The notes under the pieces were generated by a model that did no database searches, was not told the DNA's origin, and saw nothing but the letters and a program-made list of their open reading frames with translations. Of a DNA stretch of 64,000 bases, positions 238-42,718 are shown one piece after another. The DNA is from a virus (lineage: Duplodnaviria; Caudoviricetes): the IMG/VR virus record IMGVR_UViG_3300005611_000008, positions 38,204 to 102,203 of that record; one strand, 5' to 3'. A program made the translations under genes and the position numbers. How positions within the stretch are numbered: the first letter of the stretch is position 1; every line of letters begins with the position of its first letter.

Positions 238-3200
238 ATGGGCATCGAAACCAATCTCAATCAAAGTCCTTATTTTGACGATTTTGATGAAGGCAAGAAC
301 TTTCACCGTGTGCTTTTCCGTCCGGGGTTTGGCGTTCAGGCACGAGAACTCACGCAGATTCAATCAATCTTACAAAATCAAATTGAACGATTTGCAAATG
401 AAGTTTTAGTTGATGGTACTATAGTCAGTGGTGTTGGTTTGTCAACCGATGATAAATTTGACTATGTTAAGTTAAGAGATAAAGATGCCAACAATCGCGT
501 TTTACTATTAGGAGATTTCTTCCAAGGCGGAGAAGTGGCAAATGCAGTAGTGACGGGTTCTACCTCCGGTCTCACCGCACAATTAATCAATGTCGTAGAT
601 GGTTCTGAAGCAGCGTCACCAGACAATCTTTCTATCTTTATTAAGTATACAAACTCTGGTGCCAACAACTCTGCTCGTGCGTTCGATAGTAATGAAACTC
701 TGATTTTGCGTCAAAGAGCAAATAATCAGTTCATCGTCGCAGCAAATACTATTACATCAAATGCAACAGGTTATGGTTTCCGAGCATCTGTTTCCGATGG
801 TATTATCTATCACAAAGGAAACTTTGTTAGAGTTTTACCGCAGTCTATTATTGTTGACAAGTATTCAACAACACCCACCAAAAAAGTTGGTTTTGAAACT
901 ATTGAATCTATTGTTGATTCAAACCAAGATTCATCTTTGTTAGATAATGCTTCCGGTGCAACCAACTTTGCGGCACCCGGTGCAAACCGTTTGAAGATGA
1001 CTCCTACATTGGTAGTTCGTAACATCAATGTTGCCAACACAACCACCTTCTTTACTGTCGCAGAAATCGAACAAGGAAGGGTCGTTCAGAGGTTTACTGA
1101 TTCGGTCTACTCTGATATAGGACAATATATTGCAGAAAGATTCTACGAAACCAACGGCAATTATGCAATTGAACCATTCAATATTCGTATACGTGAGCAC
1201 CTAAAAGGTTCTAACAACTTGGGTCGTTACAATGCCGATGGTGGTGGTAATAGCAATAAGTTGGTTGCGGAAGTTGAAAAAGGTATCGGTTATGTAGATG
1301 GCAACCGCATTTCACTTGAGTCTCCTATATTCCGCGATGTCGATAAAGCAACTGACTTTGAAACTAAAGATGCTCGTATCATAGGTCAAGCAATCGGAAA
1401 CTATGTTATAGCAAAAGAAGTTGTCGGTACTTGGGATTTTCAAGGGTTGCGTGAAGTAGATTTGCATGATACAGTACAGCAAGGTATTTCTGGATTAAAT
1501 TTTGGAAACCAATCCGCACAAGGTACAAAAATTGGTACTGCACGTGTTCGTGGTTTCCAGTGGAATTCGGGAACTGCAGGAACTCCAACAGGACAATTTA
1601 GAATTTATTTGTTTGACATCAAGATGGAAGTCAACAAGTCATTTTCGGATGTGCGGAGCATTTATGTAGATAATACTTCTGGTCCAAAGTCAATGGCAGA
1701 CTTGGTGCTGAATGCAGACGGAAACGCACAAATCGAAGAAGCAGGACTGAATACTCTAGTCTTTCCATTTACGCAAAAGGGCACAAAAACTTTGCGAGAT
1801 GAGGACAACAACATTGATACGCAATGGGTATTCAGAACAGAAAAAACTGTCAACTTTGTGGACGGTGTTGCCGCAGTATCTGCCAACTCTGCACACGCAG
1901 GGGGCACAGAGACACTAAATGATACGGGTTCTTTGACAAATGTCGATGAGAGAAATCTTATCATTGTGTCTAAGCAAGCATCAGAAACAGATCCACATAC
2001 AGGTTCGGTTACGACATTCACAGGAAATACCGTAACTGGTTCCGGTACAACATTCGAGTCATCGTATCAAGTTGGTGACATTATGACGATTGAAGACGGT
2101 GCTAATACGGTCACCGCACGTATTACCAACATTGTGAATGACACTGGATTGAATGTTGCGAATACCTTTACTTATACTCGTAGTGGTGTTACACTGGCAC
2201 ACAAAACATCATTCCCTGAAGGTTATATTTTTGATTTAACCTCTAATGGTAATATTACCTCTACATCTACGACGCATACTATTGAACTTGATCAAGCAAA
2301 CTTGGCATCGTCATTCCTCGCATCAGTCTATTTCAATGTTTCTCGTTCAGATGCAGTTCAAACCTCAAAGACTGTTAATAAGAATAAGTTCATTGAGATT
2401 GACACCACGACAAATTCTGCAGGTTCTTTGGGACCATGGTCTCTTGGTGTATCAGATGCATTTAAGATTGAAGAAGTGTACGTTGGTAATGCAAACACAG
2501 TAAATACTTCAAGCACCACTTACACCTCCGAGTTTGAACTTGATACTGGTATGAAAGATGCGTTCTATGACACATCTTCAATCCGATTGAAATCCACAAG
2601 TACCTTAGATATGAACGGCAAGGGAATGCTTGTTAAGTTCTCACACTTTGGAAGAGACCGTTCTGCAGGAATTGGTTTCTTGTCTGTTGATTCTTATCCA
2701 ATCGATGATTCTAACGCATCAAACACAACAGCAATTACTACCCAAGAGATTCCGGTGTTTAGATCACCGACAACAGGTGTAGAATATGACTTGCGAGACA
2801 GTATCGATTTCCGTCCAATCAAATTGAACAGCATTGTTCCTTCTTCTGTATATACATCTGCACCAAAGAACCCTGCTGCAAACACAAGTTATAGTATTGA
2901 TTCTGATGGAGCATATATGCCGACTCCAGACGAAAATTTCCAAGTAGATATTCAGTTCTACCTTCCACGCAAGGACCGAGTAGTTTTGACAAAAGAAGGT
3001 CGTGTTGAAGTTGTGAAGGGCATTCCTTCTATTATACCTCGTACACCGGAAGAACGTGCAGGTTCAATGACTCTTGGTATTTTGGACATTCCAGTGTACC
3101 CGTCTTTGTCGCCATTTGTGGCAAAGCAATCTGGACGCATCGACTATCAAGTTAATTTGTCTCTTGAAAATAACCGTCGATATACAATGAAGGATTTGCG

Positions 3201-5889
3201 TTCGGTAGAACAACGAGTCAATAATCTCGAATACTATTCGTCTTTGAACGCACTCGAAGCATCAGCAAAAAACAAGCAACTGTTTAACGACTCTGGATTG
3301 GATCGTTTTAAGAATGGTTTCTTAGTAGACAATTTTGATGGTCATAATCTGGCAGACACCACAAAGGTTGGATACCGTGCTGCAATTGATAGAAACAGAA
3401 CTTTATTGAGACCATCGTACATTCGTGGTGATGTTAGTATGTCTGATGGTTTGGTGCAGAATTCTACCAACTTGACAAAAACTGGAAACCTGATTACTCT
3501 ATCATATACTAATTCGACTTTATTGGATCAGAAGTTTGCATCTAAGTTGCGTAACCCAGTTCAAGAAATAACCTTTGATTGGCAAGGTGAGATTAACCTG
3601 AATCCTTCAATGGATAACACACCAGATATTACCACGCTACCAGATATTCAAGTAGATTTTGATGGTATGTATCGTGCGATTGAAGAAATTGCATCTAGAA
3701 CTGGTGTCACGGGTATTGATTGGGGCAATTGGAATACTGTAAATACTACAGTAGATAGAAGGACTGTGAGACGCGGAGATACAGAAACTCGAACCACTAC
3801 AACTCAGACTGACCAGATTCGCGAAGGCATTCAAACCACCATCAGTGCATCCACCGAAACTTTCTCAATCGGAAACTTTGTTGAGAATGTTGCGGTGCGA
3901 GACTTCATTCGTTCGCGTAATGTCCAAGTCACTGGTGTTCGGATGAAACCAAACACTCGCGTCTACCCATACTTTGACGATGAGTTAGTTGCGGATTATG
4001 TGGCACCTGCAAACAATTCATTTGCCAATACTGGCGTGGAAGGAGCAAACCTCGTAACAGATAGCACTGGTACGGTGTATGCCAACTTCCGTATTCCTAA
4101 TGATAATGAACTAAAATTTAGAATCGGTACAAGAAGATTCGAACTAAAAGATGTTGCAAACACGCAGACACAATCTAGTTTGATTACCACATCCGCACAC
4201 GGAGACTACACAAGTATTGCTCTTGATGTTACACAACGTGGAAGTGCATTGAATATTACCGTTCCGCAGATTTCAGACAACCGCGTGACAGATAATAGAA
4301 CCTTGACATCAGTGACTCGAACAGTACGAGACGTTAATGATAATCGTGGCGGTGGTGATCCTATAACTCAAACCTTTACGGTTTCTGCGGGCAATTCAGA
4401 AGGCGCATTTATTACTAAGTTGGATTTATACTTTGGACGCAAGTCTTCTACTTATCCAATCACCGTTCAGATCCGCGAAGTAGAAAATGGTTTCCCAACA
4501 CAAACCATTGTTCCCTTTGGTTCAAAGACTTTACAACCTGCATCTGTGTCAACCAGTAATGATGGTCAGACTGCGACAACCTTTACATTTGATTCTCCAA
4601 TATATCTGCAAAACAATAAAGACTATGCGCTGACAGTGATTCCTGGGGGTAATTCGGATGAGTATGCAGTTTGGGTTGGTGAATTAGGAGGTACTGATGT
4701 ATCCACTAATGAATTGATTGACAAACAACCTACAACTGGTGTATTATTTGTTTCTGCGAATAACAAAACTTGGAAACAAATTCAATCTGAAGACTTGAAG
4801 TTCAAGTTGCATCGTGCAAACTTTACTAGAAATACTGGGACTATCTATGTTGAAAATGATGCATTAGATTTCTTCACATACAGTACTATCAATGGAACAT
4901 TCCAGAATGGAGAAAAAGTCACCAATGCAGGTGGAGATCGTGGTTTCATTAAGTTTATCGATACTGCGAATCAGAAGATTCATATCGAAAACTCTACTGG
5001 TGGTTTTAGTTCCTCAGATGTAATCACTGGTTCTGTATCGGGCGCGACTGCAACCATTAGCACAGTAGACAATTTGATTTTGAATACTTTGGTTCCGAAG
5101 ATTCCTCAGATTACATATGCAAATACAAGTGCATCTTGGTCTGTAAGAGCAACATCTACTTCAGGTGTTATTCCTTCTTCTTACAAGTCTATTGATTTAC
5201 AGTTTGAAAATGACTTCATTGATGGAGAAAAGAAAGTATATTCCAAGTCTAATGAGTCTGTGTTGACTCCGGTTGATGGTTCTAGTAAGACTTTGACTTT
5301 GAAAGGAACGATTTCATCCACTGATAACTTCTTATCACCTGTTATCGATACTTCTAGAATGAATTCGATTGTTATTGAAAATGTTATTAACAACGACAAC
5401 GATGAAGAGTGGAAAGAACAAGGTAACGCACTTGTTAGATATATCACTCGCCCAGTTGAGTTGTCTGATGGGCAAGATGCCGAAGACTTGAAAGTATTCT
5501 TGACATCATACAAACCTGCAGGAACAGACATCAAGGTGTATGCTAGAATTCATAACCCAAGTGATGCGGAAGATATTGATTCAAAAGACTTCACACCTTT
5601 GACTCAAATTACTGACTCAACTTTGGTTTCTGACTCAGTTGATACGAGTGACTTTAAAGAATTTGAGTTTGGATTCAGTGCAAATACTGACGGTCAGAAC
5701 TTTTTAGCAAGTGCCAACTCGCATGCACGACTAAATAGTTCTAATAATGAAGTTGTTACTTATCGTGCGGGAGACGGATCGATTCATGCGACTTACAAAA
5801 CCTTTGCATTGAAGATTGTTATGACAAGTTCTGGAAGTAATATTGTTCCTCTTGTCCGAGATATGAGAGCAATTGCACTACAAAAATGA
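238..5889 (+). CDS. Large virion structural protein, VrlC-like / DUF4815 family
   Basis: 1883 aa; N-terminus TNLNQSPYFDDFD..FHRVLFRPG..VQARELTQIQSILQNQIE, internal DRFKNGFLVDNF and C-terminal P.VRDMRAIAL are typical of this family in marine T4-like phages. Confidence 0.85.
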   Translation: MGIETNLNQSPYFDDFDEGKNFHRVLFRPGFGVQARELTQIQSILQNQIERFANEVLVDGTIVSGVGLSTDDKFDYVKLRDKDANNRVLLLGDFFQGGEVANAVVTGSTSGLTAQLINVVDGSEAASPDNLSIFIKYTNSGANNSARAFDSNETLILRQRANNQFIVAANTITSNATGYGFRASVSDGIIYHKGNFVRVLPQSIIVDKYSTTPTKKVGFETIESIVDSNQDSSLLDNASGATNFAAPGANRLKMTPTLVVRNINVANTTTFFTVAEIEQGRVVQRFTDSVYSDIGQYIAERFYETNGNYAIEPFNIRIREHLKGSNNLGRYNADGGGNSNKLVAEVEKGIGYVDGNRISLESPIFRDVDKATDFETKDARIIGQAIGNYVIAKEVVGTWDFQGLREVDLHDTVQQGISGLNFGNQSAQGTKIGTARVRGFQWNSGTAGTPTGQFRIYLFDIKMEVNKSFSDVRSIYVDNTSGPKSMADLVLNADGNAQIEEAGLNTLVFPFTQKGTKTLRDEDNNIDTQWVFRTEKTVNFVDGVAAVSANSAHAGGTETLNDTGSLTNVDERNLIIVSKQASETDPHTGSVTTFTGNTVTGSGTTFESSYQVGDIMTIEDGANTVTARITNIVNDTGLNVANTFTYTRSGVTLAHKTSFPEGYIFDLTSNGNITSTSTTHTIELDQANLASSFLASVYFNVSRSDAVQTSKTVNKNKFIEIDTTTNSAGSLGPWSLGVSDAFKIEEVYVGNANTVNTSSTTYTSEFELDTGMKDAFYDTSSIRLKSTSTLDMNGKGMLVKFSHFGRDRSAGIGFLSVDSYPIDDSNASNTTAITTQEIPVFRSPTTGVEYDLRDSIDFRPIKLNSIVPSSVYTSAPKNPAANTSYSIDSDGAYMPTPDENFQVDIQFYLPRKDRVVLTKEGRVEVVKGIPSIIPRTPEERAGSMTLGILDIPVYPSLSPFVAKQSGRIDYQVNLSLENNRRYTMKDLRSVEQRVNNLEYYSSLNALEASAKNKQLFNDSGLDRFKNGFLVDNFDGHNLADTTKVGYRAAIDRNRTLLRPSYIRGDVSMSDGLVQNSTNLTKTGNLITLSYTNSTLLDQKFASKLRNPVQEITFDWQGEINLNPSMDNTPDITTLPDIQVDFDGMYRAIEEIASRTGVTGIDWGNWNTVNTTVDRRTVRRGDTETRTTTTQTDQIREGIQTTISASTETFSIGNFVENVAVRDFIRSRNVQVTGVRMKPNTRVYPYFDDELVADYVAPANNSFANTGVEGANLVTDSTGTVYANFRIPNDNELKFRIGTRRFELKDVANTQTQSSLITTSAHGDYTSIALDVTQRGSALNITVPQISDNRVTDNRTLTSVTRTVRDVNDNRGGGDPITQTFTVSAGNSEGAFITKLDLYFGRKSSTYPITVQIREVENGFPTQTIVPFGSKTLQPASVSTSNDGQTATTFTFDSPIYLQNNKDYALTVIPGGNSDEYAVWVGELGGTDVSTNELIDKQPTTGVLFVSANNKTWKQIQSEDLKFKLHRANFTRNTGTIYVENDALDFFTYSTINGTFQNGEKVTNAGGDRGFIKFIDTANQKIHIENSTGGFSSSDVITGSVSGATATISTVDNLILNTLVPKIPQITYANTSASWSVRATSTSGVIPSSYKSIDLQFENDFIDGEKKVYSKSNESVLTPVDGSSKTLTLKGTISSTDNFLSPVIDTSRMNSIVIENVINNDNDEEWKEQGNALVRYITRPVELSDGQDAEDLKVFLTSYKPAGTDIKVYARIHNPSDAEDIDSKDFTPLTQITDSTLVSDSVDTSDFKEFEFGFSANTDGQNFLASANSHARLNSSNNEVVTYRAGDGSIHATYKTFALKIVMTSSGSNIVPLVRDMRAIALQK

Positions 5890-9433: not shown

Positions 9434-10345
9434 ATGGCATTTCGACGACCTTTGAAATTAAACGGTAGTAATCTACAAGAAATGGCGAACACGGATATTG
9501 AAAACATTCAAAATCTCGCGTTCTGGCAATATATTAGCAATCCCTCAGTATCTCTGTCTGTGGTAGGTTCTAGTGGAAATCTAGGAACTATCAATGACAC
9601 TAGATTGCAAGCAGGAACATATTCTACTCTCGTCAATAGATTTCCCACAGAAGAAGAAACTGCAGAACCAACAACGGTAACTGTAGGATATGCTAGATTA
9701 GATCAAACAGTAACCGATACTAATCCACCATCTGATAATGGAACGTCTTTTCCTGTTTACTATGATTCAACTGGAAATATTAGGTCTATGAATCTGCAAG
9801 ATATGTATGATACTTTTGGGTATGCAGCAATAGAAAATTTGCAAACAGCATCCTCTATTGAAACAATTTATAGAATACATACTTCCACATCATTCACAGG
9901 GTATAGTTTGGTTAGTGCTACTCCAATATTTTCTGACTCCGGTGCTGATGTGAGTTTATACACCGCAGATGGAATTCCAGAAAGTCTAGACCAACCAGCA
10001 ATCATTGGAGATTATTATTTGTTAAAAAGAGATTATGTAGCACCTGAATTCCCCCTACCAGTAAAAAATGACAGTAATAATTTGGCATCTTTTACCAGTA
10101 GTAGTTTTGAGTCCATAATTGAAACTATGATAAGGCATCTTGCTGCAGAGGTTTCTGGTTATCGATTACGTTATTCTTGGGATGGTACAGGAACCACTGT
10201 TGGTAGTGTGCTTGATCAAAGACTCAATGGTTCAGGTAGTTTTAACGAACTGGAATTTGATGAAAACGATTATCGTGCACAAGAATTTCCCAATGGATCT
10301 TTGGTGACAGTTAATACTTATAATTTAAAGTTGAGGCAAGAATGA
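9434..10345 (+). CDS. Hypothetical, probably tail-associated protein
   Basis: 303 aa, coupled to the fibre gene; two RPLK/PVK..N.L.. and D.RL..G..-type internal repeats. Confidence 0.6.
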   Translation: MAFRRPLKLNGSNLQEMANTDIENIQNLAFWQYISNPSVSLSVVGSSGNLGTINDTRLQAGTYSTLVNRFPTEEETAEPTTVTVGYARLDQTVTDTNPPSDNGTSFPVYYDSTGNIRSMNLQDMYDTFGYAAIENLQTASSIETIYRIHTSTSFTGYSLVSATPIFSDSGADVSLYTADGIPESLDQPAIIGDYYLLKRDYVAPEFPLPVKNDSNNLASFTSSSFESIIETMIRHLAAEVSGYRLRYSWDGTGTTVGSVLDQRLNGSGSFNELEFDENDYRAQEFPNGSLVTVNTYNLKLRQE

Positions 10346-10830
10346 TATTATCTAATGGAAGATTTACACACGCAAGGTTCACGAGTTCTAAAAAAAATCA
10401 AGTCGAATCTATTTGGTTTGATGAGGAAAACAAAACTTACGAACAAGTTGCAATTGAAGTCGACTTAAAAAGTCCAGAGTATGTGAAGTTATTAGAAACT
10501 TTTACTATAGATGAAATTTCTACTATGACCGACCAATACGCAAAAGAAGAAACGCAAAACTTCCTTGCGATTGTAAAAGACATTGCGGAAAAACACGATT
10601 TGATTTACGATCCAGATGCAGTGAACGGAAAAGATAAGTTGAATATCGACCACATCTTCAGTCCTCCTGAAGGCGACGATGGTGTTGACTTGTTGTTCAA
10701 TGTGAAGTTGAAAATTTTTGAACTCGATGAAGTTCTAAATTCTGACAACGGAGAACTCAAAAAAGCATTGCGAGAATCTAAAACTCCAATGGAAGCATTT
10801 TATATCGCAGGTAAGTTCTTATACGAATAA
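10342..10830 (+). CDS. Hypothetical protein (acidic; possible fibre assembly factor)
   Basis: 162-aa ORF with ATGA overlap to the previous gene; function by context only. Confidence 0.55.
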   Translation: MILSNGRFTHARFTSSKKNQVESIWFDEENKTYEQVAIEVDLKSPEYVKLLETFTIDEISTMTDQYAKEETQNFLAIVKDIAEKHDLIYDPDAVNGKDKLNIDHIFSPPEGDDGVDLLFNVKLKIFELDEVLNSDNGELKKALRESKTPMEAFYIAGKFLYE

Positions 10831-11508
10831 GTGATACTTTGTCCACTTACTTGGATGGTTCGTCATATGAGTAAAGTGGACAAACTTAATTTCCGGATAG
10901 AATTCATCTCCGATAAACATATAAGGGTTCCCGGTCACTTTTTGATACATCCTATTGAGTTGAGTTAAGGTGTGTCTTGTGTAGGGTTCTTTTCTTGCTT
11001 CCATTCTACAGAACCATTCGTCAGGCATCTTAACCAACTCCAATCCCTCATTCACAGAATCTTCTATAAAGTGTTGTTCTCCATTGATTGGTCCTGCGGT
11101 ATATCCTTCTTCAATGTACTTTCTTTGCCAGTATTCGGGGGATTGCATAAACTTATCTAGAATGTACTTACAGTCTTTTGGATAGTATTTGTAGAATCCT
11201 CCATTGATACTAAACCGAGTTCCTTCCGCATCTCTCCACCAACCCGGCATCGCAACAAACTGTCCTCGTTCAATTGGGTACTCGAATATCTTTTTGTAGT
11301 CATTGATTAGTAAGACATCGATGTCCATCACACAGATAGGTTCATCGGTATCAAGAGTCATACCGTACATCTTATTCCATTGAAGTTTGATGTTATCGGA
11401 CATAGGTTCGCGAACCCAAGTAAATTGATACTCAGGAAGTTTGGACTCTAGGTAAGTTTCATACTCGGGACCATATCGGTCTCCGATTCTAACTGCGATG
11501 ATTTGCAT
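10819..11508 (-). CDS. Glycosyltransferase (GT-A fold)
   Basis: IIAVRIGDRYGPEY start, W.K, DxD motif (MDIDV), INGG, GEQ.F and C-terminal VHF; paralogous to 16282..16959. Confidence 0.7.
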   Translation of the reverse strand: MQIIAVRIGDRYGPEYETYLESKLPEYQFTWVREPMSDNIKLQWNKMYGMTLDTDEPICVMDIDVLLINDYKKIFEYPIERGQFVAMPGWWRDAEGTRFSINGGFYKYYPKDCKYILDKFMQSPEYWQRKYIEEGYTAGPINGEQHFIEDSVNEGLELVKMPDEWFCRMEARKEPYTRHTLTQLNRMYQKVTGNPYMFIGDEFYPEIKFVHFTHMTNHPSKWTKYHLFV

Positions 11509-12817
11509 TGATAACCATATTTCTGAAAATGTTGGTGCCTACCACGGTAGTGTTTTGTAATTGCAAGTATCTATTGAACATATCGTGAATGTCTTCAATC
11601 TTCATCTTGTGGATGACAAAATTGTAAGAAAAAATGTTAGACAAATAAATTAGGTTGCGTTTATCTGAGTCCACATTTAATGGTGATTCCAACGCATCGT
11701 GCAACAAAAATGTAGGTTTCACCTTTTTGATTGTTTCTATCCACTCTTCAGTAGAGTATGACTTTTCTATTTGTTCTAATAGTTCGAGTTTATATTGACA
11801 ATAGTCTAAAACCAAACCCTCTTTCTTTTCGAACATTTTGTTGAGTCGTGTCATATCCTCTCTGGTATCAACCATTTCATAAGTCATCTGTTTCCACTTC
11901 AGAGAATCTTTATTGTAATCATATATTACCAATTTTGTGTTCTCGTGTCCAATCTTTTCATAAAGAAACTCTGCAATGCATCCAGATGCGGGCGCGTATA
12001 TTACATCAAACTTTTTCGTATTTGCAGGTATGCGTCGGTCAAACTTGGTAATCATAGTTTCATTGTTTCGTGCATACACTATGTTCTCATTTCGAGACCT
12101 TTCGAAATCAAGTGCTTCGCAATGCCTTCTCTCAGGATAACAAAAGAACTTGGTCAACCTTTCTTGTGCAAAGTTCAATATTTTTTTATCATCCTCGAAT
12201 ACTTTGGTGAGATACTCTCCCATCTCGACATTGACGACCTCTCTGTATTCATTACTCGGAGAGACCCAATGAGGAGTGTAATCGTCGTGTACATTTGAAG
12301 TTGACCTATTGGGATACATCACCTTTCCAGTATATCTACCAAAGGAGGGTTTGGAGATGGAACGCCAGTGTTTGATGTTGAGGAACATACACTGCAGATG
12401 CATTCTCAAATAAGGTCTGTTGGGATGAAATAAAATATGACCGCGACAAGGTTCTTCTGTCTCGCAGAACTTATCAAAAAAAGTGTGTATTGTATCGGGT
12501 GCCTTATTTTGATAGTTATTGTAGAAGGTTCCGATATAACTTATCAATGCATAGTTATACTTATCTCCAACTTGCAATAACGCATCATCTAATGTTTCCG
12601 CAAAAATCAAGTTGCAGTTTTTAGAACCTCCGCGAGACCACCCAATACTTGTGTACCAAGTAAGAGTTGCCATATACTGCGCATAATCACCCCAGTCAAT
12701 CTTGGGATAGTTTAGTATGATATGTAATCTATCGGACTCTACCTCGTTATGTCGAGAGTGTTCCATAATATAATTTGCAAATTCTTTAAATGACTGCATC
12801 AGGATGTTCTTTCTCAA
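11489..12817 (-). CDS. Hypothetical protein, possibly GT-like N-half plus SAM-binding-like C-half
   Basis: 442 aa; C-half has VIYAPASG...LVIYDYN...LIYLSNIF, reminiscent of a Rossmann methyltransferase fold; family assignment uncertain. Confidence 0.45.
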   Translation of the reverse strand: MRKNILMQSFKEFANYIMEHSRHNEVESDRLHIILNYPKIDWGDYAQYMATLTWYTSIGWSRGGSKNCNLIFAETLDDALLQVGDKYNYALISYIGTFYNNYQNKAPDTIHTFFDKFCETEEPCRGHILFHPNRPYLRMHLQCMFLNIKHWRSISKPSFGRYTGKVMYPNRSTSNVHDDYTPHWVSPSNEYREVVNVEMGEYLTKVFEDDKKILNFAQERLTKFFCYPERRHCEALDFERSRNENIVYARNNETMITKFDRRIPANTKKFDVIYAPASGCIAEFLYEKIGHENTKLVIYDYNKDSLKWKQMTYEMVDTREDMTRLNKMFEKKEGLVLDYCQYKLELLEQIEKSYSTEEWIETIKKVKPTFLLHDALESPLNVDSDKRNLIYLSNIFSYNFVIHKMKIEDIHDMFNRYLQLQNTTVVGTNIFRNMVINANHRS

Positions 12818-13451
12818 ATGATTTTATGAATAATTTAATAGTGTCTTCACAATATCCTCCGTGAAGAATAAAATGGATTCTAGGTTCGGGACTGAAGTTT
12901 GCTGCTTCATGGAAAGGTCCGTTGTTGAACCAGTACACCTCTCTAGGTTTAAAAGGAACCTCTTCAAGTGTTTCGGAGTTTCGAAGATAACAATTTTCTG
13001 GTTGAGTTATCGCAATGTTTATTGCGGAGGTGATACTGTTCTTTAACTTCATACCCTCTTTCCACTGATGGGTATCAGTATGCGAACGAATAAATCCACC
13101 ACTCTCCAATAACATAAATCGACAACGACTGTACTTACCATTATTAGGAAAGTCTTCCTTCAACCACCTCGTCATTTCCGGAGCATACTCCGTTAATTCT
13201 GTCCAGTGATACTTGTCCTTTGCGTTTTCGTTGTAGGTTGTAGTGCGCATACTTTCTCCGTGCAGGGTGATGGATTTCCATCCCTTGCCGTGTGATGCGC
13301 GGTGTGGTATAAATAGACCTAGATTGTAGATGTTCAACGATTCATTGATGACTTCTTTTGGGATTAGAATGTCTGCTTTGAGGTACATTAGTTCTCGATC
13401 TTCACACCACTTTTTAATTTTTTCGAACTTAGTATAAATGGACATATTCAA
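12786..13451 (-). CDS. Aspartyl/asparaginyl beta-hydroxylase-like 2OG-Fe(II) oxygenase
   Basis: RCRFMLLESGGFIRSHTD (HxD) ... FHEAAN (distal H) ... RIH. Confidence 0.75.
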   Translation of the reverse strand: MNMSIYTKFEKIKKWCEDRELMYLKADILIPKEVINESLNIYNLGLFIPHRASHGKGWKSITLHGESMRTTTYNENAKDKYHWTELTEYAPEMTRWLKEDFPNNGKYSRCRFMLLESGGFIRSHTDTHQWKEGMKLKNSITSAINIAITQPENCYLRNSETLEEVPFKPREVYWFNNGPFHEAANFSPEPRIHFILHGGYCEDTIKLFIKSFEKEHPDAVI

Positions 13452-13887
13452 TCGCTGTGTGGTTGGGGTTAAATTTATTTGCGTGATGTATAAAAGATAA
13501 TTTACTTCTTTCTATTCTATTCAATGTATACAAGGAGTCATAGTCAATCAACATAAACCCATTGTCTAATACCAGAGTATTCGATGCATTCCAATCACAA
13601 TAGGTATAACCTAGTTCGGTTATTCTCTCAAACTCATTCCACCAAAAATCAATCATCTTGTCGGTGTCTGCGTTCATATTTATGTAATAGTTTTTTGCAT
13701 CAATATACTTGATATCTATAAAATCTTTTCCGGAATCTAGATACATACCCGGAAAACAATCTTGAATTGCGCAAACCAAGAATTCTATTTCTTCTGGACT
13801 TTTGTTCTGATATATTTTACGAACAATGTTAAGTTCGGAATCGTAGTAAACCTTGCGTTTGTTTTTGGATTGTTTGATTAGTTGCAT
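13429..13887 (-). CDS. Minimal kinase-like (APH/RIO-type fold) protein
   Basis: Catalytic-loop-like YCDWNASN and DFG-like LIDYD motifs; N-terminal VRK lysine. Confidence 0.55.
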   Translation of the reverse strand: MQLIKQSKNKRKVYYDSELNIVRKIYQNKSPEEIEFLVCAIQDCFPGMYLDSGKDFIDIKYIDAKNYYINMNADTDKMIDFWWNEFERITELGYTYCDWNASNTLVLDNGFMLIDYDSLYTLNRIERSKLSFIHHANKFNPNHTAIEYVHLY

Positions 13888-14465
13888 TCGCCGATCACCA
13901 TAAACCGAGTGTAATTTTCGGTTTTCAATTCACCACTGTAATGTATGGTGGTCAGTCCAGTCGACTCTAAGAATTCGTCCAAACTTTTCTTACAGTTTGA
14001 GTGTTCCTCTATTTCAAAATAGTCATTACTCTGAAATGCAAACACCGTATCAGTCACCACAATCTCTTTCATATCGCGCATATGTTCGCAGGAAGTATTA
14101 ATCACCAAATCATACTCTCCAATGTTTTTAATCGAACAATAATCAAATGCATCACAAGTATTATACCGTAAAGTGTATTTATCTTCAACCTTCTTCACGA
14201 ACTTCTTACTCAGTCTTTTGACCATTGGGTCAGAGTCGATGCAATCAAAGTGTCCTCCTATTTCATAGGGAATGAGTGTCGCATACCACGCACCTAACAT
14301 AAGAGTATTTTTTGGTTGAACGACCTTCAACACCTCATCCACTAACCATCGTTTGCAAAGTATTTTCTTTCTCATCAAACTGTTTGCAAAAGAATGGGAT
14401 TCGTGTAAAGACTCTGATTGCATCAAAGTGTGGGTGAACGCAAAAAAGAACTCATCGGTAATCAT
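13878..14465 (-). CDS. Class I SAM-dependent methyltransferase-like protein
   Basis: LMLGAWY motif I, acidic IDSDP, DLVINTSCEHM, C-terminal YTRFMVIG. Confidence 0.7.
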   Translation of the reverse strand: MITDEFFFAFTHTLMQSESLHESHSFANSLMRKKILCKRWLVDEVLKVVQPKNTLMLGAWYATLIPYEIGGHFDCIDSDPMVKRLSKKFVKKVEDKYTLRYNTCDAFDYCSIKNIGEYDLVINTSCEHMRDMKEIVVTDTVFAFQSNDYFEIEEHSNCKKSLDEFLESTGLTTIHYSGELKTENYTRFMVIGECN

Positions 14466-14472
14466 ATAAATA
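14465..14472 (+). promoter_or_regulatory. T4-type late promoter (gp55-dependent)
   Basis: Exact TATAAATA about 22 nt upstream of the ATG at 14495, with GAGG Shine-Dalgarno. Confidence 0.7.
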
Positions 14473-14488
14473 GTCTCACATTATTGAG

Positions 14489-15478
14489 GTGATTATGTTA
14501 GAAAATGGTATAGACGCAGTTGAAATTGAGTTGTCGTCTCGGTGCAATGCAGGGTGTCCTATGTGTGCGCGTACAGACAACGATATGATACTCAGTAAAC
14601 AACGCGATATCTCACTGGAAGAATTTAAAGTATTTTTTTCTCCGGAGTTTATATCCAAACTAAAACAATTCAAATTCTGTGGCAACTTTGGTGACCCAAT
14701 GGTCGCAAAAGATGTTGTTGAAATACATAAGTATATATGCGATAATAATCCAAACATAAAACTAATTATGAGTACCAATGGGGGACTCAGAACCAAAAAG
14801 GTTTGGACTGAACTTGCGAAGTACTATCAGAATCCCAACGGGTCTCATATACAGTTTCATATAGATGGACTTGAAGACACCAACCACATTTACAGAAAAG
14901 GTGTTCGGTGGGATAGGATTATGGAGTGCGCAGATGCATTTATTTCTGCGAGAGGTATTGCGGTATGGTACTTTATACCTTTCTTTCATAACGAACACCA
15001 AGTCGAGGAAGCAGAACAACTCGCACGAGATATGGGATTTGCAGAGTTTGTAATTAAGGTATCTGCAAGGTTTGATAGTTTTGATAAACCATTCATAGGT
15101 TCTCGGGGAGAAAGATTGTATCCCCCAACCGCAGATAGGTTTAACATTCGAGGCGTTCAAGTGCGAGGAGAACTTAAATGTGTCTCTGAAATACGGAAAG
15201 AAATTTATGTCGATTCTTGGGGAAGGGTATTCCCTTGTTGTTGGACTGCAACGAAACACGATGAAATGAATTGGGACATCGACAATTCATTGCGAGTGCA
15301 TACAATAGAAGAAGTGTTTGCATCAGAAAAAATAAATAGTTGGATTAATAAACTGTACTGCGACCAAGGTTCGGTGTGCAACAAAAGATGTACAGGCGAG
15401 TTTCAACATATGATAGACATCAACGGAAAACAAACTCCTCAGAAAGAACTGTGGTATTACGGAGATAAAGATGCTTAA
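14489..15478 (+). CDS. Radical SAM protein with SPASM/twitch-like C-terminal Cys cluster (ATG start probably 14495)
   Basis: CNAGCPMC (CxxxCxxC), GNFGDP, TNG, IDG; C-terminal C...GRVFPCC...CNKRC. Confidence 0.85.
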   Translation: MIMLENGIDAVEIELSSRCNAGCPMCARTDNDMILSKQRDISLEEFKVFFSPEFISKLKQFKFCGNFGDPMVAKDVVEIHKYICDNNPNIKLIMSTNGGLRTKKVWTELAKYYQNPNGSHIQFHIDGLEDTNHIYRKGVRWDRIMECADAFISARGIAVWYFIPFFHNEHQVEEAEQLARDMGFAEFVIKVSARFDSFDKPFIGSRGERLYPPTADRFNIRGVQVRGELKCVSEIRKEIYVDSWGRVFPCCWTATKHDEMNWDIDNSLRVHTIEEVFASEKINSWINKLYCDQGSVCNKRCTGEFQHMIDINGKQTPQKELWYYGDKDA

Positions 15479-16292
15479 AGAAGTAGTGATTTATAATGGG
15501 AAAAAGTTTAAACCAGAATTGCTTGACATTGCAGAGAATGAGTTCGTGGGAATATTCTTCACTGGAGGAATTGAGTCCACTCTTGTCGCAAAAATGATGA
15601 TTGAAAAATATGGTGTCGATAGAGTAGTCTTTGTCATACTGACTATGAATCGGTACAGTAATTATGCAAAGAATGCTGAAAAGGCACAACGAGTACTCTC
15701 AGACTTTGAAAACCGAGTTCAGAGACTCGGAGGAAAACATATTGTCGATATGAACACCGAAGACGCAGACAACTGCGATGAATGGTATGGAACTCGAGTT
15801 TTGTCCGCAATCACTAAAATGAAAATATCAAAAGAGGTTGGTTCTTGTCGGTATATTTTCACAGGTTATTCTAACATTCATAAAGAACATATGGAAATGT
15901 TAGATGAGTGTGGGTGGGAAAAAGGTTTTGTATTGCGCGAACAGGTTGAGAATTGGTTGCGCGAAGAAAACAGAATAGACAATTATCCAGAGATAAAAAG
16001 ATTTTTGGATGAACAGAAAGGCGCACTCTATTTCGTCACAGAATCAGTTCCATTTGATATTGTTCAAGAACATTACTACGACAGTATAAAACCTTTGAAC
16101 AATCTAACCAAAGACGAAGCAATCGATCTCTATCGTCAATACGATATAATAGACGAACTTGCGCATACAATATCGTGCAATGACCCAAGTTATGAGGGAT
16201 ACGACCATTGTGGGTATTGTAAAAACTGCATTCAAAGACAAGACGGATTTAAGGATACTGGTATAACAGACCCGACAAATTATGCCAACTAA
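15471..16292 (+). CDS. QueC-like PP-loop ATP pyrophosphatase (divergent)
   Basis: FFTGGIEST (variant of SGGxDS); C-terminal TISC..HCGYCKNCIQR..GF...G..DPT.Y matches the QueC zinc site and tail. Confidence 0.7.
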   Translation: MLKEVVIYNGKKFKPELLDIAENEFVGIFFTGGIESTLVAKMMIEKYGVDRVVFVILTMNRYSNYAKNAEKAQRVLSDFENRVQRLGGKHIVDMNTEDADNCDEWYGTRVLSAITKMKISKEVGSCRYIFTGYSNIHKEHMEMLDECGWEKGFVLREQVENWLREENRIDNYPEIKRFLDEQKGALYFVTESVPFDIVQEHYYDSIKPLNNLTKDEAIDLYRQYDIIDELAHTISCNDPSYEGYDHCGYCKNCIQRQDGFKDTGITDPTNYAN

Positions 16293-16959
16293 TATATTAT
16301 GTGTGAAGTGGGGGAGAAAGTACTCTCCACAATATGTGAACAATTTACACGAAATGATTCGAAGGTATTATCCAGAGGACTTTCGTTTTGTTTGTTATAC
16401 TGATGATGAGACTGGGTTGGATTGTGAAACTCTAAAGATAGAATCTGACCTTGAGGGTTGGTGGTTAAAACTAGAGTTGTTGTCTCTGTTTACTTTCGGA
16501 ACCAATATCGTTTTTGATTTAGATGTTGCGGTATTGAATAGACTAGAGAGATTGCACTCGGTCAAGACCAGAACCCTTTCAGTACTGTTCTCTAAATGGA
16601 AGGAAGGGTTCATTACTCCTCGTGCGCATGAACGCAACCCCACACTATACAACTCATCTATAATGAAGTGGGAAGGGGAACAAGGTCTTCCTGTATGGAA
16701 TCATTTTCAGAAGAACAAAGACTACCTTCTCTTCAAATATGAAGGCATCGACAGATACCTATTTAATGAATCTGTGGATGTGGATGTGTTGCCTAGTGGG
16801 ATTGCGTATTCATATTGGAAGGGTGCGTCTTATAAAAAAGACTCGACTCCCGAAAAACTCAGAGATGATTATGAAGTTTGTATTGTGAATCATAATCCAA
16901 AACCACACGAGATTGATACTTGGATTAGAGATTATTGGAATGTATCTAAGACTGCCTAG
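16282..16959 (+). CDS. Glycosyltransferase (GT-A fold)
   Basis: ILCVKWGRKYSPQYVNNL, CYTD, GWWLKL, FDLDV (DxD), NSSIM, KPH. Confidence 0.75.
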   Translation: MPTNILCVKWGRKYSPQYVNNLHEMIRRYYPEDFRFVCYTDDETGLDCETLKIESDLEGWWLKLELLSLFTFGTNIVFDLDVAVLNRLERLHSVKTRTLSVLFSKWKEGFITPRAHERNPTLYNSSIMKWEGEQGLPVWNHFQKNKDYLLFKYEGIDRYLFNESVDVDVLPSGIAYSYWKGASYKKDSTPEKLRDDYEVCIVNHNPKPHEIDTWIRDYWNVSKTA

Positions 16960-17782
16960 AAATTTACATTTCGAATTGAGTTCATATTGTAATGCGAAGT
17001 GTCCTATGTGTGTTCGAACCAATAAAGAATTTGAACCCAAACACCTTTCTTATGATATAATAGAGTCTAGGTTCAAAGATTACAAGTTTGAACAAATCAA
17101 GTACGGAGGAAATCTAGGCGACCCTCTAATGCACCTCGATGCGTTGAAGTTCTTTCGGTTGTTCTCATCATCAAGACAACTCATTCACACGAATGGGTCT
17201 TTACGGTCAAAGTCTTTTTGGAAAGATGTTGGTGAGATAGACAATCTCTGTGTGGTATTTGGTATTGATGGTATCGACCAAGAGACTCATATCAAATATC
17301 GTGTAGACACCAACCACGACAAGATTATAGAGAACGCAAAAATTTTCATTGAGTCTGGTGGAGAATCTTGGTGGCAGTTCATCGTCTTCAAACACAATGA
17401 ACACCAAATAGATGATGCAAAACAAATTGCAAAAGATATGGGATTCAAGTGGTTTGAAACCCTATACTCCAGAAGGTTTGGATCTGGAACTTACGAAGGA
17501 TTAGAACCTCCCGAAACACAACCTCTTATGATTGTAGAGGAAAGTAAGATACAGTGCAAGTCTCAAAGAAAAGAAGAGATGTACATTTCTGCAGATGGAA
17601 AAATCTGGGTGTGCGACTACACCGCAAACCATTTAGAAACTCCATTGAATATATACGAAACGGGGTTTGAGGATGCAGTGTCTAATATTTACTTTGACGA
17701 GATTTTAATTAACCCCAAACCCGTGTGTAAAATTAATTGTGGTATGAAATATAGAAACAAACATATTATTGAGGAATTATGA
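16940..17782 (+). CDS. Radical SAM protein with twitch-like C-terminus (paralog of 14489)
   Basis: CNAKCPMC, GNLGDP, HTNG, GIDG, FKHNEHQ; ATG at 16940 preferred over the TTG at 16913. Confidence 0.85.
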   Translation: MYLRLPRNLHFELSSYCNAKCPMCVRTNKEFEPKHLSYDIIESRFKDYKFEQIKYGGNLGDPLMHLDALKFFRLFSSSRQLIHTNGSLRSKSFWKDVGEIDNLCVVFGIDGIDQETHIKYRVDTNHDKIIENAKIFIESGGESWWQFIVFKHNEHQIDDAKQIAKDMGFKWFETLYSRRFGSGTYEGLEPPETQPLMIVEESKIQCKSQRKEEMYISADGKIWVCDYTANHLETPLNIYETGFEDAVSNIYFDEILINPKPVCKINCGMKYRNKHIIEEL

Positions 17783-18399
17783 ACTACGAAAGACTTCTCT
17801 CATATGGAAATATAATTCAACTAAAACACAACCTCGATTGCAATAAACTATTGGAAGAGATTAGTGGGTTTGAATTTGGATTATACAATCCGAGAAAGAA
17901 AAACAATCCTCGATACGGTTTGTCTATCACAAGTCTGGATGGAAGTCTGAATGGTATCGACTTGGATTCTTTGATTGATGCGTATGAAAAGACGGGTCAA
18001 GTGTATAATGAAATGTCCTTCCGCACACTGACAGAGGTCTATGAGAAATCTTCCGAATTGAAGAAGGTGATAGACCCCCTCAAGAATTTTTTAGGCAGAA
18101 CTCATTTTCTTAGATTTTCTAAGGGGGGACACTTCCCTCCTCATAGGGATGACCGAGGTTCTCAATCGCAACCGGATTTTCGCATCATTGTTCCAATTAA
18201 GTATACTAATCCGCCTGACTCTTATTATGTGTTCAATGGTGAGATTGTAAATCTTAATTATGGATATGCATACTTTATGAACACCAACCTAGAACATTCG
18301 TTCTTTTCTTTCAACAACGAATCTACTATGATTGTAATGAATGTTGAGGGATGTTCAGATGCGTATCAATTGGTTCTCGACAGTATGTATTCGACATAA
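17779..18399 (+). CDS. Aspartyl/asparaginyl beta-hydroxylase-like 2OG-Fe(II) oxygenase
   Basis: GRTHFLRFSKGGHFPPHRD (HxD) ... NTNLEHS (distal H). Confidence 0.7.
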   Translation: MNYERLLSYGNIIQLKHNLDCNKLLEEISGFEFGLYNPRKKNNPRYGLSITSLDGSLNGIDLDSLIDAYEKTGQVYNEMSFRTLTEVYEKSSELKKVIDPLKNFLGRTHFLRFSKGGHFPPHRDDRGSQSQPDFRIIVPIKYTNPPDSYYVFNGEIVNLNYGYAYFMNTNLEHSFFSFNNESTMIVMNVEGCSDAYQLVLDSMYST

Positions 18400-18834
18400 C
18401 TCTTCAATGTCCATATCGTAAAAGAGTTGAAGAGATATTCGAGTTTCTGAATTGTTTTGTACTTTATGTCTCGATTGTGTATTGAATGCATAACAATCCA
18501 TACAAGGAATATCTCCATCCTCGGTAGTGCAAGGTGTATAGTTTTTAGTCAACGGAAAAATAACTACCGTGTCTCTTTTGTTGTCTTTACTGTCGGTGTG
18601 CCAATCAACGAGTTTGTTGGGTTCTATTTTCAGCAGAGACATCATATAAGGTTTGGCGATAAATAAATCTGCAACCTCATCATACTGTCTAGGAAGAAAG
18701 TCGAGATTGGTGTAAGAACCAGATTTAGTCGAACGGTGACGATAGTAGTCGTCGGAAGACAATGCATCTTGAATCAGTCGAGTTTTGGTATTGTCATCTA
18801 GGGACAAGTCAATTTTGAAATAGTTCATTGCCAT
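18355..18834 (-). CDS. 2OG-Fe(II) oxygenase (Asp/Asn-hydroxylase-like)
   Basis: WHTD (HxD), FNTQSRHKVQN, RISLQ. Confidence 0.7.
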   Translation of the reverse strand: MAMNYFKIDLSLDDNTKTRLIQDALSSDDYYRHRSTKSGSYTNLDFLPRQYDEVADLFIAKPYMMSLLKIEPNKLVDWHTDSKDNKRDTVVIFPLTKNYTPCTTEDGDIPCMDCYAFNTQSRHKVQNNSETRISLQLFYDMDIEELCRIHTVENQLIRI

Positions 18835-19376
18835 CTCGGATATTTGTTCAGATTCTCTAAAAATTTTTCAGGAAATATTTCCCACACCGTCTGATTGGTA
18901 TTACGATAAAACACATCTTTTATATTTTTTACAATGCCCATTTTTTCTAAGGTGGGGAAGTAATATTTATGAACCAGTCTCTGACTTGCAACCTTACTGT
19001 CGTTAGAGGTTGCAAAGGTTCTTCCTTTACTCCATTCCAAACACACAGGCAACAAAAACTGGTCGGTCAGGTTTTGATGTTGTGCGATTGATTTGCTAGG
19101 TTTGATTAATGATTTATTCCCATACTCACTAAAGGTGCAAGTGCGTACAAGAACTCTATATGTTTTTGTTCCCATTACTTCATCAAAACTGTGTGCAACA
19201 ACAGACCCTATTGCATCAGAGTCTTTATACAATATCCACGCACTCCACTCTCTTTCGTTCTTAAAGGTGTCTATCATTCGTTTTTGAGAACTATTATTGA
19301 CAAACCCTCGCGATGCAGATTCGAGATAAAATTTTCTCAAATCTAAATCTTCAGACCATTCCAAAATATTATGCAC
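18825..19376 (-). CDS. Hypothetical protein, possible GNAT-fold acyltransferase
   Basis: WILYKDSDAIGSVVAH...YRVLVRTC pattern resembles GNAT beta strands; weak. Confidence 0.4.
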   Translation of the reverse strand: MHNILEWSEDLDLRKFYLESASRGFVNNSSQKRMIDTFKNEREWSAWILYKDSDAIGSVVAHSFDEVMGTKTYRVLVRTCTFSEYGNKSLIKPSKSIAQHQNLTDQFLLPVCLEWSKGRTFATSNDSKVASQRLVHKYYFPTLEKMGIVKNIKDVFYRNTNQTVWEIFPEKFLENLNKYPRWQ

Positions 19377-19402
19377 TACTGTATTCCTTGCGGTTTAAAA
19401 CA

Positions 19403-19410
19403 TATAAATA
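19403..19410 (+). promoter_or_regulatory. T4-type late promoter
   Basis: Exact TATAAATA upstream of the ATG at 19446. Confidence 0.75.
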
Positions 19411-19445
19411 ACAATATTGCTAATATATATGCATCGAGGGCGAAA

Positions 19446-19784
19446 ATGGCGGCAAAAGCAAATATTGTTATTGATCAAGGAGCAGACTTCTCCTCAACCA
19501 TAACTGTAACTGATGATGCAGGAGACACAGTTGACCTTACAGGGTACTCTGCTTCCGGTCAGATTCGTAAGCATTATACATCGAATACCGCGTATAATTT
19601 TACGACATCTTTTGGTGTGCCAAGAACTAATGGACTGCTAACACTATCACTTTCTCGCGCAACCACTGCCAACATAGAAGCAGGGCGTTATGTTTATGAT
19701 GTAGAGATCACGAGTGCGGCAAACACGCGCTCAAGATTAATTGAAGGTATTGTGACGATTACACCCGAAGTAACAAGGGGATAG
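19446..19784 (+). CDS. Conserved small virion structural protein (Ig-like, BppU-like)
   Basis: ANIVIDQGADF...DLTGYSASGQIRK...GRYVYDVEI...RLIEGIVTITPEVTR; ATG 19446 has a GAGGG SD. Confidence 0.75.
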   Translation: MAAKANIVIDQGADFSSTITVTDDAGDTVDLTGYSASGQIRKHYTSNTAYNFTTSFGVPRTNGLLTLSLSRATTANIEAGRYVYDVEITSAANTRSRLIEGIVTITPEVTRG

Positions 19785-32584: not shown

Positions 32585-32919
32585 TGGCAGTAGTTGAATA
32601 CATGCTTCAAAAAATAAATGGTAATAGCAAAGCAGAAATTCCCGGTTTTATCGGAGATCGAGGGCATTGGTACAATTCAGCAGATCATACCTATGTTGGT
32701 TGGATCGATGACGAAAGAGATTATTATGTACCAGACTCAATCAAAACTTTAACCAAAGAACAGTTCGTGACTCGTACACTTGGAATGCATGCAACCAATC
32801 CTATGATGAACGAAATGGATATGGAAAACCCAGATGCTGAACCAGAAGCAATGACTGATGCAGAAGTCACGACAATGGCAGAACAGTGGTACGATAATTT
32901 CGTTTCACAAAATTCATGA
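32584..32919 (+). CDS. Hypothetical protein
   Basis: TAATG coupling, GGAGG SD; 111 aa, acidic. Confidence 0.7.
   Translation: MAVVEYMLQKINGNSKAEIPGFIGDRGHWYNSADHTYVGWIDDERDYYVPDSIKTLTKEQFVTRTLGMHATNPMMNEMDMENPDAEPEAMTDAEVTTMAEQWYDNFVSQNS

Positions 32920-40668: not shown

Positions 40669-40672
<4 letters not shown>
39836..40672 (+). CDS. gp15: Tail sheath stabilizer/terminator gp15
   Basis: FG..FNDI, VPIAYGPREKFLARL, LPRLAFE, QILPFFRP; ATG 39836 overlaps the gp14 stop. Confidence 0.92.

Positions 40673-42718
<2,046 letters not shown>

Follow-up and report, generated by a model that had tools for sequence, protein, structure and literature searches.

A host recognition cluster (HRC), spanning the region from a VrlC-like baseplate gene to the neck gene of pelagimyophages and cyanomyophages, was described in 2020 by Zaragoza-Solas et al. 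(PMC7029224), and 'cell-wall' and 'antibiotic' genes of large cyanomyoviruses have been described as well (PMC12801897). Virus-encoded glycan synthesis is known from PBCV-1, in which the protein A064R combines a GT-A glycosyltransferase (GT) with a methyltransferase, building and methylating the capsid glycan (PMC9614988), and phage-encoded virion glycosylation has been documented for mycobacteriophages (Freeman et al. 2023, as cited in PMC12619734). The present study analyzed an island of twelve open reading frames (ORFs), g01 to g12, at positions 10819-19376 of a 64-kb window, i.e., the last 64 kb of the 102-kb IMG/VR contig IMGVR_UViG_3300005611_000008 (completeness estimate ~57%); all positions below refer to this window unless another genome or locus is named. 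The island is most likely a cytoplasmic kit that builds and decorates a glycoconjugate, because GT-A, methyl-/acyltransferase, oxygenase, and radical enzymes occur together here, and a sugar aminotransferase, an epimerase, and a carbamoyltransferase are found in the corresponding island of the cultured Pelagibacter phage Mosig. A previous sequence-only reading of this DNA had proposed a pathway for making a glycan or adduct and attaching it, which fits the enzyme set, the solubility of the proteins, and their joint recurrence in many related phages.

The window carries the gene set of a T4-like aquatic myovirus (terminase, sheath, portal, scaffold, major capsid, CobS-like, and peptidase genes), and its major capsid protein shares 63-67% identity with its counterparts in Pelagibacter phages HTVC008M and Mosig, Methylophilales phage Melnitz, Synechococcus phage S-SCSM1, and Stenotrophomonas phage DLP6. 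Both borders of an HRC were found, from the DUF4815/VrlC-like gene (238-5889) to the T4_neck-protein gene (39081-39836), with the island (10.8-19.4 kb) inside; beyond the neck gene follow gp15 (39830-40672) and the small terminase gene (40669-41091). As in described HRCs, fibre genes stand on both sides of the island and the region is non-syntenic, with GTs, radical S-adenosylmethionine (SAM) enzyme (rSAM) cassettes, and other non-structural genes; the enzyme content differs across 98 related loci. The twelve ORFs, whose positions and tight packing were all confirmed, form three strand blocks, five on the minus strand (g01-g05), five on the plus strand (g06-g10), and two on the minus strand (g11-g12). 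Same-strand neighbours overlap by 4-47 nt, and the GC content of the island is slightly below that of the flanks (0.367-0.385 vs 0.39-0.45). The features of the island are as follows.

10819..11508, minus strand: g01, predicted GT-A glycosyltransferase (GT8/GT24-like), from its fold model and an invariant D62-I-D64; the most conserved gene of the island
11489..12817, minus strand: g02, predicted GT-A domain (residues ~25-240) plus class I SAM methyltransferase domain (~240-441), from an AlphaFold model; paired with g03
12786..13451, minus strand: g03, AspH-like 2-oxoglutarate (2OG)/Fe(II) oxygenase; PF05118 at 33.4 bits vs a cut-off of 22.6; H124-x-D126 ... H181-x9-R191
13429..13887, minus strand: g04, near-orphan 152-aa protein; Rio2 kinase match in the catalytic-loop region (E 0.14); D-x4-N and IDYD motifs found by visual inspection
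13878..14465, minus strand: g05, class I methyltransferase-like protein; Spermine_synth match at E 0.11
14465-14472, plus strand: T4-type late promoter motif TATAAATA, exact, 22 nt before the ATG of g06 (14495)
14489..15478, plus strand: g06, rSAM protein with a SPASM/twitch-type C-terminal Cys motif; PF04055 at 47.3 bits; CNAGCPMC; 1691 relatives
15471..16292, plus strand: g07, divergent QueC-family PP-loop protein; PF06508 at 36 bits, above the cut-off; zinc Cys4 kept
16282..16959, plus strand: g08, predicted GT-A glycosyltransferase; phrog_1962 (glycosyltransferase) at E 3.7e-10; invariant D79-L-D81
16913..17782, plus strand: g09, second rSAM protein (twitch-like), paralogue of g06; PF04055 at 32.4 bits; phrog_21308 at E 1.6e-24; CNAKCPMC
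17779..18399, plus strand: g10, putative AspH-like oxygenase; H122-x-D124; PF05118 at E 0.036 and 14.4 bits, below the cut-off
18355..18834, minus strand: g11, putative small cupin-type 2OG oxygenase; 55 relatives; invariant H79, D81, H123, and R132 (HxD...H...R)
18825..19376, minus strand: g12, GNAT-like acyltransferase fold; Atlas structure matches to GNAT families at TM 0.54-0.63

Enzymes encoded by the island

Profile and structure searches left almost every enzyme call of the sequence-only reading standing. PDB sequence and profile searches for g01, g08, g02, g05, and g12 yielded nothing usable, and folds were therefore predicted instead. The g01 model, folded with 15 homologues, is of moderate quality (pLDDT 65) with residues 1-165 well folded, and it matched mannosylglycerate synthase (2bo4; VIA Z 9.4, rmsd 4.2 over 146 aa) and LgtC (Z 8.3); in Foldseek, it matched GlyE and the catalytic domain of UGGT at probabilities of 0.98-1.0 and the PBCV-1 A64R structure 2p72 at 0.90. 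Across 80 loci g01 is 55-78% identical, compared with 40-55% for the neighbouring structural genes. The second GT, g08, aligns with g01 as a distant paralogue (hhalign E 1.3e-4, probability 53%), and the earlier assignment of both genes as GTs is borne out by the GT-A fold, the hhalign and PHROG matches, and the invariant DxD. In addition, g02, which had been left as a protein without a function, is now resolved as a predicted GT-A plus class I methyltransferase fusion. Its AlphaFold model (29 sequences; pLDDT 93.3, pTM 0.90) matched 6p61 (Z 9.1, rmsd 3.0 over 140 aa) and A64R (Foldseek probability 0.99) with the N-terminal domain, and methyltransferases (Z 9.6 and 9.2), including NNMT (Foldseek probability 1.0), with the C-terminal domain. 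Fold searches with g01 and with g02 both returned LH3 and ColGalT1. The g02 family comprises 59 relatives, has no Pfam domain on record, carries no name other than 'hypothetical protein', and falls into Atlas clusters that are 88-94% viral. By sequence, the candidate DxD sites of g02 are D76-D77 and the invariant D178-D179, and its true start is probably Met7 (12799). Judged by models and matches with moderate Z values, g01, g08, and the N-terminal domain of g02 are three predicted GT-A glycosyltransferase domains.

Three genes had been called AspH-like, a call that holds for g03, is weak for g10, and for g11 goes through its family residues and relatives. The g03 gene adjoins a g02 homologue in the same direction in 12/18 loci. 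Fusion of the two was considered as well and set aside: one Atlas row contained an AspH-g02 fusion at a score of 0.83, below the trust level, and no fused ORF occurred in the 98 loci, so only adjacency was used. The g10 protein matched g03 by BLAST at E 0.013 and is 45% identical to the Asp_Arg_Hydrox gene product of Mosig and 36% identical to that of a bacterial gene standing beside rSAM genes. For g11, PF05118 was matched by 3/39 relatives (best E 5e-6) and not by g11 itself.

The g05 product, which shares 31% identity with the 'putative methyltransferase' of Mosig and 44% with a gene product of one related locus (L028), is probably class I methyltransferase-like, the earlier call thus standing on weak evidence. 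The kinase-like call for g04, which stays a near-orphan after PDB and Pfam searches and has one homologue among 5.8 billion proteins, is very weak. No sequence-level match was obtained for g12, and its GNAT-like assignment is upheld by the fold match from the Atlas structure search alone (TM ~0.6); a g12-like gene lies between the QueC-like gene and a GT gene in nine related loci.

Both rSAM calls were verified, since g06 and g09 exceed the PF04055 cut-off of 29.5 bits and carry CxxxCxxC. The SPASM domain (PF13186) scored 19.9 bits in g06, just below its cut-off of 21.5. Taking the full SPASM motif as C-x9-15-G-x4-C followed by CxxCx5Cx3C, g06 contains C-x13-G-x4-C and then C-x5-C-x3-C without the CxxC, and g09 contains C-x13-G-x4-C with only two further Cys. 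The NCBIfam matches of both proteins are all SPASM/twitch maturases of peptides and cofactors, with scores far below the family cut-offs. The late promoter motif reported earlier at 14465 is indeed exact; the start of g06, however, was corrected, and is probably the ATG at 14495, behind GAGG at 14484-14487, where the public protein cluster of g06 also begins.

The QueC-like call for g07 likewise held, in a divergent form. The protein passes PF06508 only via its C-terminal zinc region and a weak PP-loop N-terminus. Its zinc site reads C236-x10-C247-xx-C250-xx-C253; all four Cys are invariant in the homologue alignment, and the spacing is x8 in most homologues. The PP-loop SGGxDS reads TGGIES in g07 and is degenerate or variable in 12 homologues (e.g., TAGIKS, TGDIET, and EADIES), and a regular-expression scan of g07 found none of YxQxHxxE, VPxRN, and YPDC. 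All four of these motifs are essential for preQ0 synthesis (PMC13329287). As its sequence indicates, g07 is not a canonical QueC, because the preQ0-essential motifs are missing and the PP-loop is degenerate while the zinc Cys are invariant. A QueC-like gene adjoins a g06-type rSAM gene, codirectionally, in 17/17 loci, and a 2026 survey of the QueC family (PMC13329287) reports no rSAM/QueC-like neighbourhood of this kind.

Mosaic structure and genomic setting

Related loci were collected with g06 (18 IMG/VR loci) and with a g01 alignment (185 found, 80 kept), and families were counted in 81 loci after the ORFs lying up to 10 kb from g01 had been clustered de novo. The analysis of neighbourhoods revealed the modules again in phage Mosig and in no fewer than 185 IMG/VR contigs. 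Of the island families, g08 was found in 53/81 loci, g02 in 38, rSAM genes in 37, g05 in 33, Pfam-supported GNAT genes in 28, g03 in 23, and QueC-like genes in 19, and g04 and g11 were rare; the two conserved genes upstream of g01, u0 and u1, occurred in 49 and 47 loci, respectively. In the g06-anchored loci, a recurrent core runs from rSAM to the QueC-like gene, sometimes a g12-like gene, the g08 GT, and, past a stretch of variable content, the g01 GT, and it is convergent with u0/u1 and the VrlC-like gene. One 165-kb phage contig holds 9/12 island genes in a different order. By these sequence comparisons, the island is put together as a mosaic from modules shared with related loci, and is not the single inserted unit that had been proposed.

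Among cultured phages, this neighbourhood occurs in Pelagibacter phage Mosig EXVC030M (MT647606) alone, whose island (~54.7-72.5 kb of its genome, ~18 kb) lies between VrlC and the fibres and contains homologues of u1 (44% identity), u0, g01, g08, g05, g10, and the rSAM genes, of which Mosig has three. Further genes there encode a DegT-type aminotransferase, an epimerase, a carbamoyltransferase, TauD, nitroreductases, and other redox enzymes; no QueC-like, g02, g03, g11, or g12 homologue was detected in Mosig at the thresholds used. The paper on Melnitz and Mosig is silent on these island genes (PMC9004378). In a different aquatic phage locus (L025:10001-21173, also L026 and L027), at least nine tandem rSAM genes lie directly downstream of Collar-domain fibre and Peptidase_G2-like genes; the first is 36% identical to g06 and is preceded by a g05-like gene. 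The CheckV-type completeness estimates of three relatives (contigs of L013, L019, and L004) were 32% for 114 kb, 20% for 71 kb, and 18% for 66 kb. These values imply genomes of ~350 kb, twice that implied for the contig of the window (102 kb = 57%); the kit may span ordinary and jumbo T4-like lineages, or the completeness estimates may be unreliable.

The placement of the island among tail and fibre genes was as described earlier, with the DUF4815/VrlC-like giant protein and structural proteins upstream and an LtfC-like fibre-assembly protein and fibres downstream. The genes that adjoin or delimit it are the following.

238..5889, plus strand: VrlC-like giant baseplate protein (DUF4815); PF16075 at E 1.6e-53; phrog_358; 31% identity to the Mosig 'putative VrlC protein'; upstream border of the HRC
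9434..10345, plus strand: u1, conserved 303-aa protein of the baseplate/fibre module, no Pfam or PHROG match
10342..10830, plus strand: u0, conserved acidic 162-aa protein, convergent with and adjoining g01 in at least 27 loci
19371..19784, plus strand: LtfC-like tail-fibre assembly protein; phrog_3304 at E 4.6e-25; PF23926; downstream border of the island

The 3' ends of u0 and g01 overlap by 12 nt (10819-10830), in the same convergent abutment that was seen in those related loci. The listed start of the LtfC-like gene is probably too far upstream, since its homologues begin to align at residue 26; the true start is probably near 19446, behind the copy of TATAAATA at 19403, which falls within the listed ORF. 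With that start, a divergent intergenic region of ~70 nt would face g12.

A second enzyme cassette was detected in the HRC among propeller-like genes, with 2OG-FeII_Oxy_5 (29768-30331), 2OG-FeII_Oxy_3 (30331-31608), and Methyltransf_24 (32916-33653) genes, and copies of TATAAATA lie at 31503 and 34180. The first propeller-like gene after the long fibre (27756-28724) gave short Pfam matches to THDPS_M, DUF4907, and NucA_NucB, no single stretch passing, and these matches are probably repeat-driven noise. A megablast search of the island against 50,697 phage records gave no match, in a collection from which close relatives may be missing. Among public reads, 5-6% of the words sampled from the window were present in only four runs, all of seawater DNA, and no RNA run is listed for it.

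Possible acceptors of the kit

Tentatively, the island can be read as one version of a glycan-tailoring kit that is modular, is shuffled horizontally, and sits in the flexible HRC of T4-like aquatic myoviruses, with baseplate/fibre structural proteins as the putative acceptor, a reading that is plausible though short of probable. The enzymes would act in the cytoplasm of the infected cell, where the GTs would move sugars from nucleotide sugars onto the acceptor and the oxygenases would create or modify hydroxyl positions. For the g03-g02 pair (AspH, then GT-A plus methyltransferase), the order would be hydroxylation, glycosylation, and methylation, and the methyl- and acyltransferases would cap the glycan. 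The rSAM/QueC-like dyad could make or attach an unusual substituent by radical chemistry followed by ATP-dependent carboxylate activation. The acceptor, favoured and unproven, would be one or more structural proteins of the adjacent baseplate/fibre module, resulting in progeny virions with a decorated adsorption apparatus.

Virion proteins are favoured as the acceptor because a late motif precedes g06-g10 and the island is embedded in the baseplate/fibre module, because the most conserved GT, g01, is anchored beside u0/u1 and all enzymes are soluble, and because of the parallels with PBCV-1 A064R and with protein modification by a hydroxylase plus a GT (LH3 among the fold matches). The motif TATAAATA occurs 12 times in the window, all on the plus strand, vs 2.05 copies expected by chance, and several copies immediately precede the genes for sheath, portal, scaffold, and capsid. 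From T4 biology, the copy before g06 is presumed to be a meaningful late promoter. A more specific version, which we regard as doubtful, would be a multi-step line of post-translational modification for the phage's own adsorption apparatus, with AspH hydroxylation, GT-A glycosylation, capping by methyltransferase and GNAT, and an rSAM/QueC-like adduct, in which the shuffling of modules diversifies virion chemistry. If true, shuffling would alter host range or resistance to host or grazer enzymes without any change of fibre sequence.

Several observations weigh against a virion acceptor, and most of them bear on a rival in which the kit remodels the host envelope. In that rival, soluble GT8-like GTs and tailoring enzymes would act on lipopolysaccharide (LPS) core, O-chain, or glycolipid precursors at the cytoplasmic face, and host export would display an altered surface that blocks superinfection or the adsorption of progeny to lysing cells. 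No late motif was found before the seven minus-strand genes, and no promoter is assignable to them; sigma-70-like sites in the island (29) are not enriched over the shuffled expectation (30.6). The rSAM/QueC cassette is antisense to the structural genes in 16-18 of ~19 related loci, i.e., to late genes in most relatives. In four close relatives (L006:1190-1271, L007, L008, and L017), a perfect TTGACA-17-TATAAT promoter, followed by CATAAATA, lies just upstream of the rSAM gene; this sigma-70 type promoter suggests early transcription by the host polymerase, and its combination with CATAAATA suggests that the cassette of this subgroup is under both early and late control. A bacterial cluster (L022:2093-13376; GCA_030425045.1, beside secE-nusG-rplK) contains a g10-like oxygenase (36%) and five rSAMs, one of them 40% identical to g06, together with a UDP-glucose/GDP-mannose dehydrogenase, GT2, and a PMT_2-like transferase, an envelope-glycan context; the phage cassettes may have in it a cellular cousin or their source. 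The AspH-family members LpxO and OlsC of bacteria act on lipids, and FA_desaturase genes and AspH-family genes occur in sister islands. Moreover, the fold matches to protein-glycosylating GTs reach only Z 8-9 and are not specific, and the catalytic role of the QueC-like protein is uncertain because the PP-loop is degenerate in many homologues. Remodelling of the host surface thus stays a serious rival, if a rather unlikely one, because the cassette is antisense in most relatives and the bacterial homologue stands in an envelope-glycan context. It is also the published reading of GT-rich HRCs (PMC7029224, where a change of the host O-chain was suggested, not tested; PMC12801897). However, no membrane-anchored component was found: hydrophobic stretches of the membrane type are absent from all 12 proteins (maximum Kyte-Doolittle hydropathy over 19 residues 1.55, no such segment reaching 1.6), and no flippase, polymerase, GT-C, undecaprenyl-phosphate priming enzyme, or Gtr-type or Wzx/Wzy-type component was recognized among them. 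In addition, the late motif on g06-g10 is late for an exclusion function, and the kit is embedded in a virion-structure module and not among early genes.

In a further rival reading, the rSAM, QueC-like, and oxygenase enzymes might make a diffusible or intracellular product, such as an unusual nucleotide sugar, a small molecule, or a peptide resembling ribosomally synthesized and post-translationally modified peptides (RiPPs), which would then be glycosylated or methylated. Such a product would accord with the SPASM/twitch maturases of peptides and cofactors that are the best NCBIfam matches of g06 and g09, with the phage whose at least nine tandem rSAM genes point to an elaborate chemistry of small molecules or peptides, and with similar rSAM/aminotransferase genes of cyanophages, read as 'antibiotic synthesis' by their authors (PMC12801897). 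It is nevertheless unlikely, given that the NCBIfam scores are all far below the cut-offs and that three GTs plus capping enzymes better suit a glycoconjugate. A precursor peptide and a RiPP recognition element (RRE) were considered as candidates and rejected, since there is no spare coding space and no matching domain; the island has essentially no non-coding space, and neither an ORF for a precursor peptide nor an RRE domain, a protease, or an exporter was recognized in it. Hypermodification of phage DNA, in which the QueC-like, rSAM, and GT enzymes would modify or glycosylate bases against restriction, appears very improbable. QueC-family enzymes and GTs do have roles in known phage DNA modifications, the PHROG match of g07 is 'QueC-like queuosine biosynthesis', and partner genes could lie elsewhere, the contig being ~57% complete. 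The absence of DNA-modification hallmarks noted in the sequence-only reading was confirmed at this completeness, with no TGT/DpdA, QueD (PTPS), FolE (GTP cyclohydrolase I), or thymidylate-synthase-like hydroxymethylase found in the 102-kb contig, and no TGT in the complete Mosig genome or three related contigs. No linkage of g07 to queD, queE, folE, or dpdA was found in the contig either, its neighbours being GTs and an rSAM of apparent SPASM/twitch type, not QueE, and g07 itself lacks the essential preQ0 motifs given above.

Comparison with described systems

Islands of GTs, rSAMs, and oxygenases in the tail region of ocean myoviruses have long been catalogued under presumptive labels such as 'LPS', 'cell wall', or even 'antibiotic' genes. 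The island is now split into modules, namely a core GT-A by the baseplate genes, an AspH and GT-A plus methyltransferase pair, and an obligate rSAM/QueC-like dyad. Several of these modules are carried by the cultured relative Mosig, which infects Pelagibacter ubique HTCC1062, so that experiments could address whether virion, host surface, or DNA is the target. Should it be the virion, phage virion glycosylation would extend beyond actinobacteriophages to the most abundant marine phage-host systems, and a non-genetic layer would be added to host-range evolution.

Among systems that alter the host surface, the Gtr systems consist of membrane proteins (flippase, bactoprenol GT, and GT-C) expressed in lysogeny. 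The island resembles GtrABC O-antigen modification in encoding GTs able to alter the host surface, whereas its proteins are all soluble rather than membrane-embedded and lie in a lytic T4-like structural module. With human LH3/PLOD3, it shares a 2OG oxygenase and a GT-A that, in LH3, act successively on one protein side chain. The oxygenase here, however, is of the AspH cupin type and not of the lysyl-hydroxylase type, the oxygenase and GT are adjacent and not fused, and no collagen-like acceptor was identified in the island. Compared with the QueC family, including the protein-conjugating Cap9/QatC (PMC13329287), g07 has the same PP-loop Rossmann N-terminus and C-terminal C-x10-CxxCxxC zinc site, but its neighbours are SPASM/twitch-like rSAMs and GTs instead of queD/queE, CD-NTase, or qatABD, and its catalytic motifs are missing.

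The PBCV-1 protein A064R differs from the island proteins in having three domains, in its low identity (14-16%), and in being a eukaryotic-virus protein whose capsid-glycan acceptor has been demonstrated. Like g02, it is a virus-encoded, soluble, cytoplasmic fusion of GT-A and class I SAM methyltransferase, its N-terminal domain being the one matched by g02 and g01. The Mosig island is larger, with extra sugar-tailoring-type and redox genes, and differs from the present one in the families listed above as undetected; it occupies the same position between VrlC and the fibres and shares u1, u0, g01, g08, g05, g10, and rSAM homologues.

The closest parallel is the HRC itself (PMC7029224), with which the island shares its genomic address, the mixture of fibres with GT8-like GTs, rSAM cassettes, and AspH-type genes, and the mosaic content, so that the type of island is already known. 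Individual families were not resolved in that description, and the rSAM/QueC-like dyad, the AspH and GT-A plus methyltransferase pair, and the u0/u1-anchored core GT were not described there. The apparently new features of the island are the predicted g02 fusion and its pairing with AspH, the obligate dyad of an rSAM and a QueC-like protein whose PP-loop is degenerate, and g01 as the lineage-core GT next to u0/u1.

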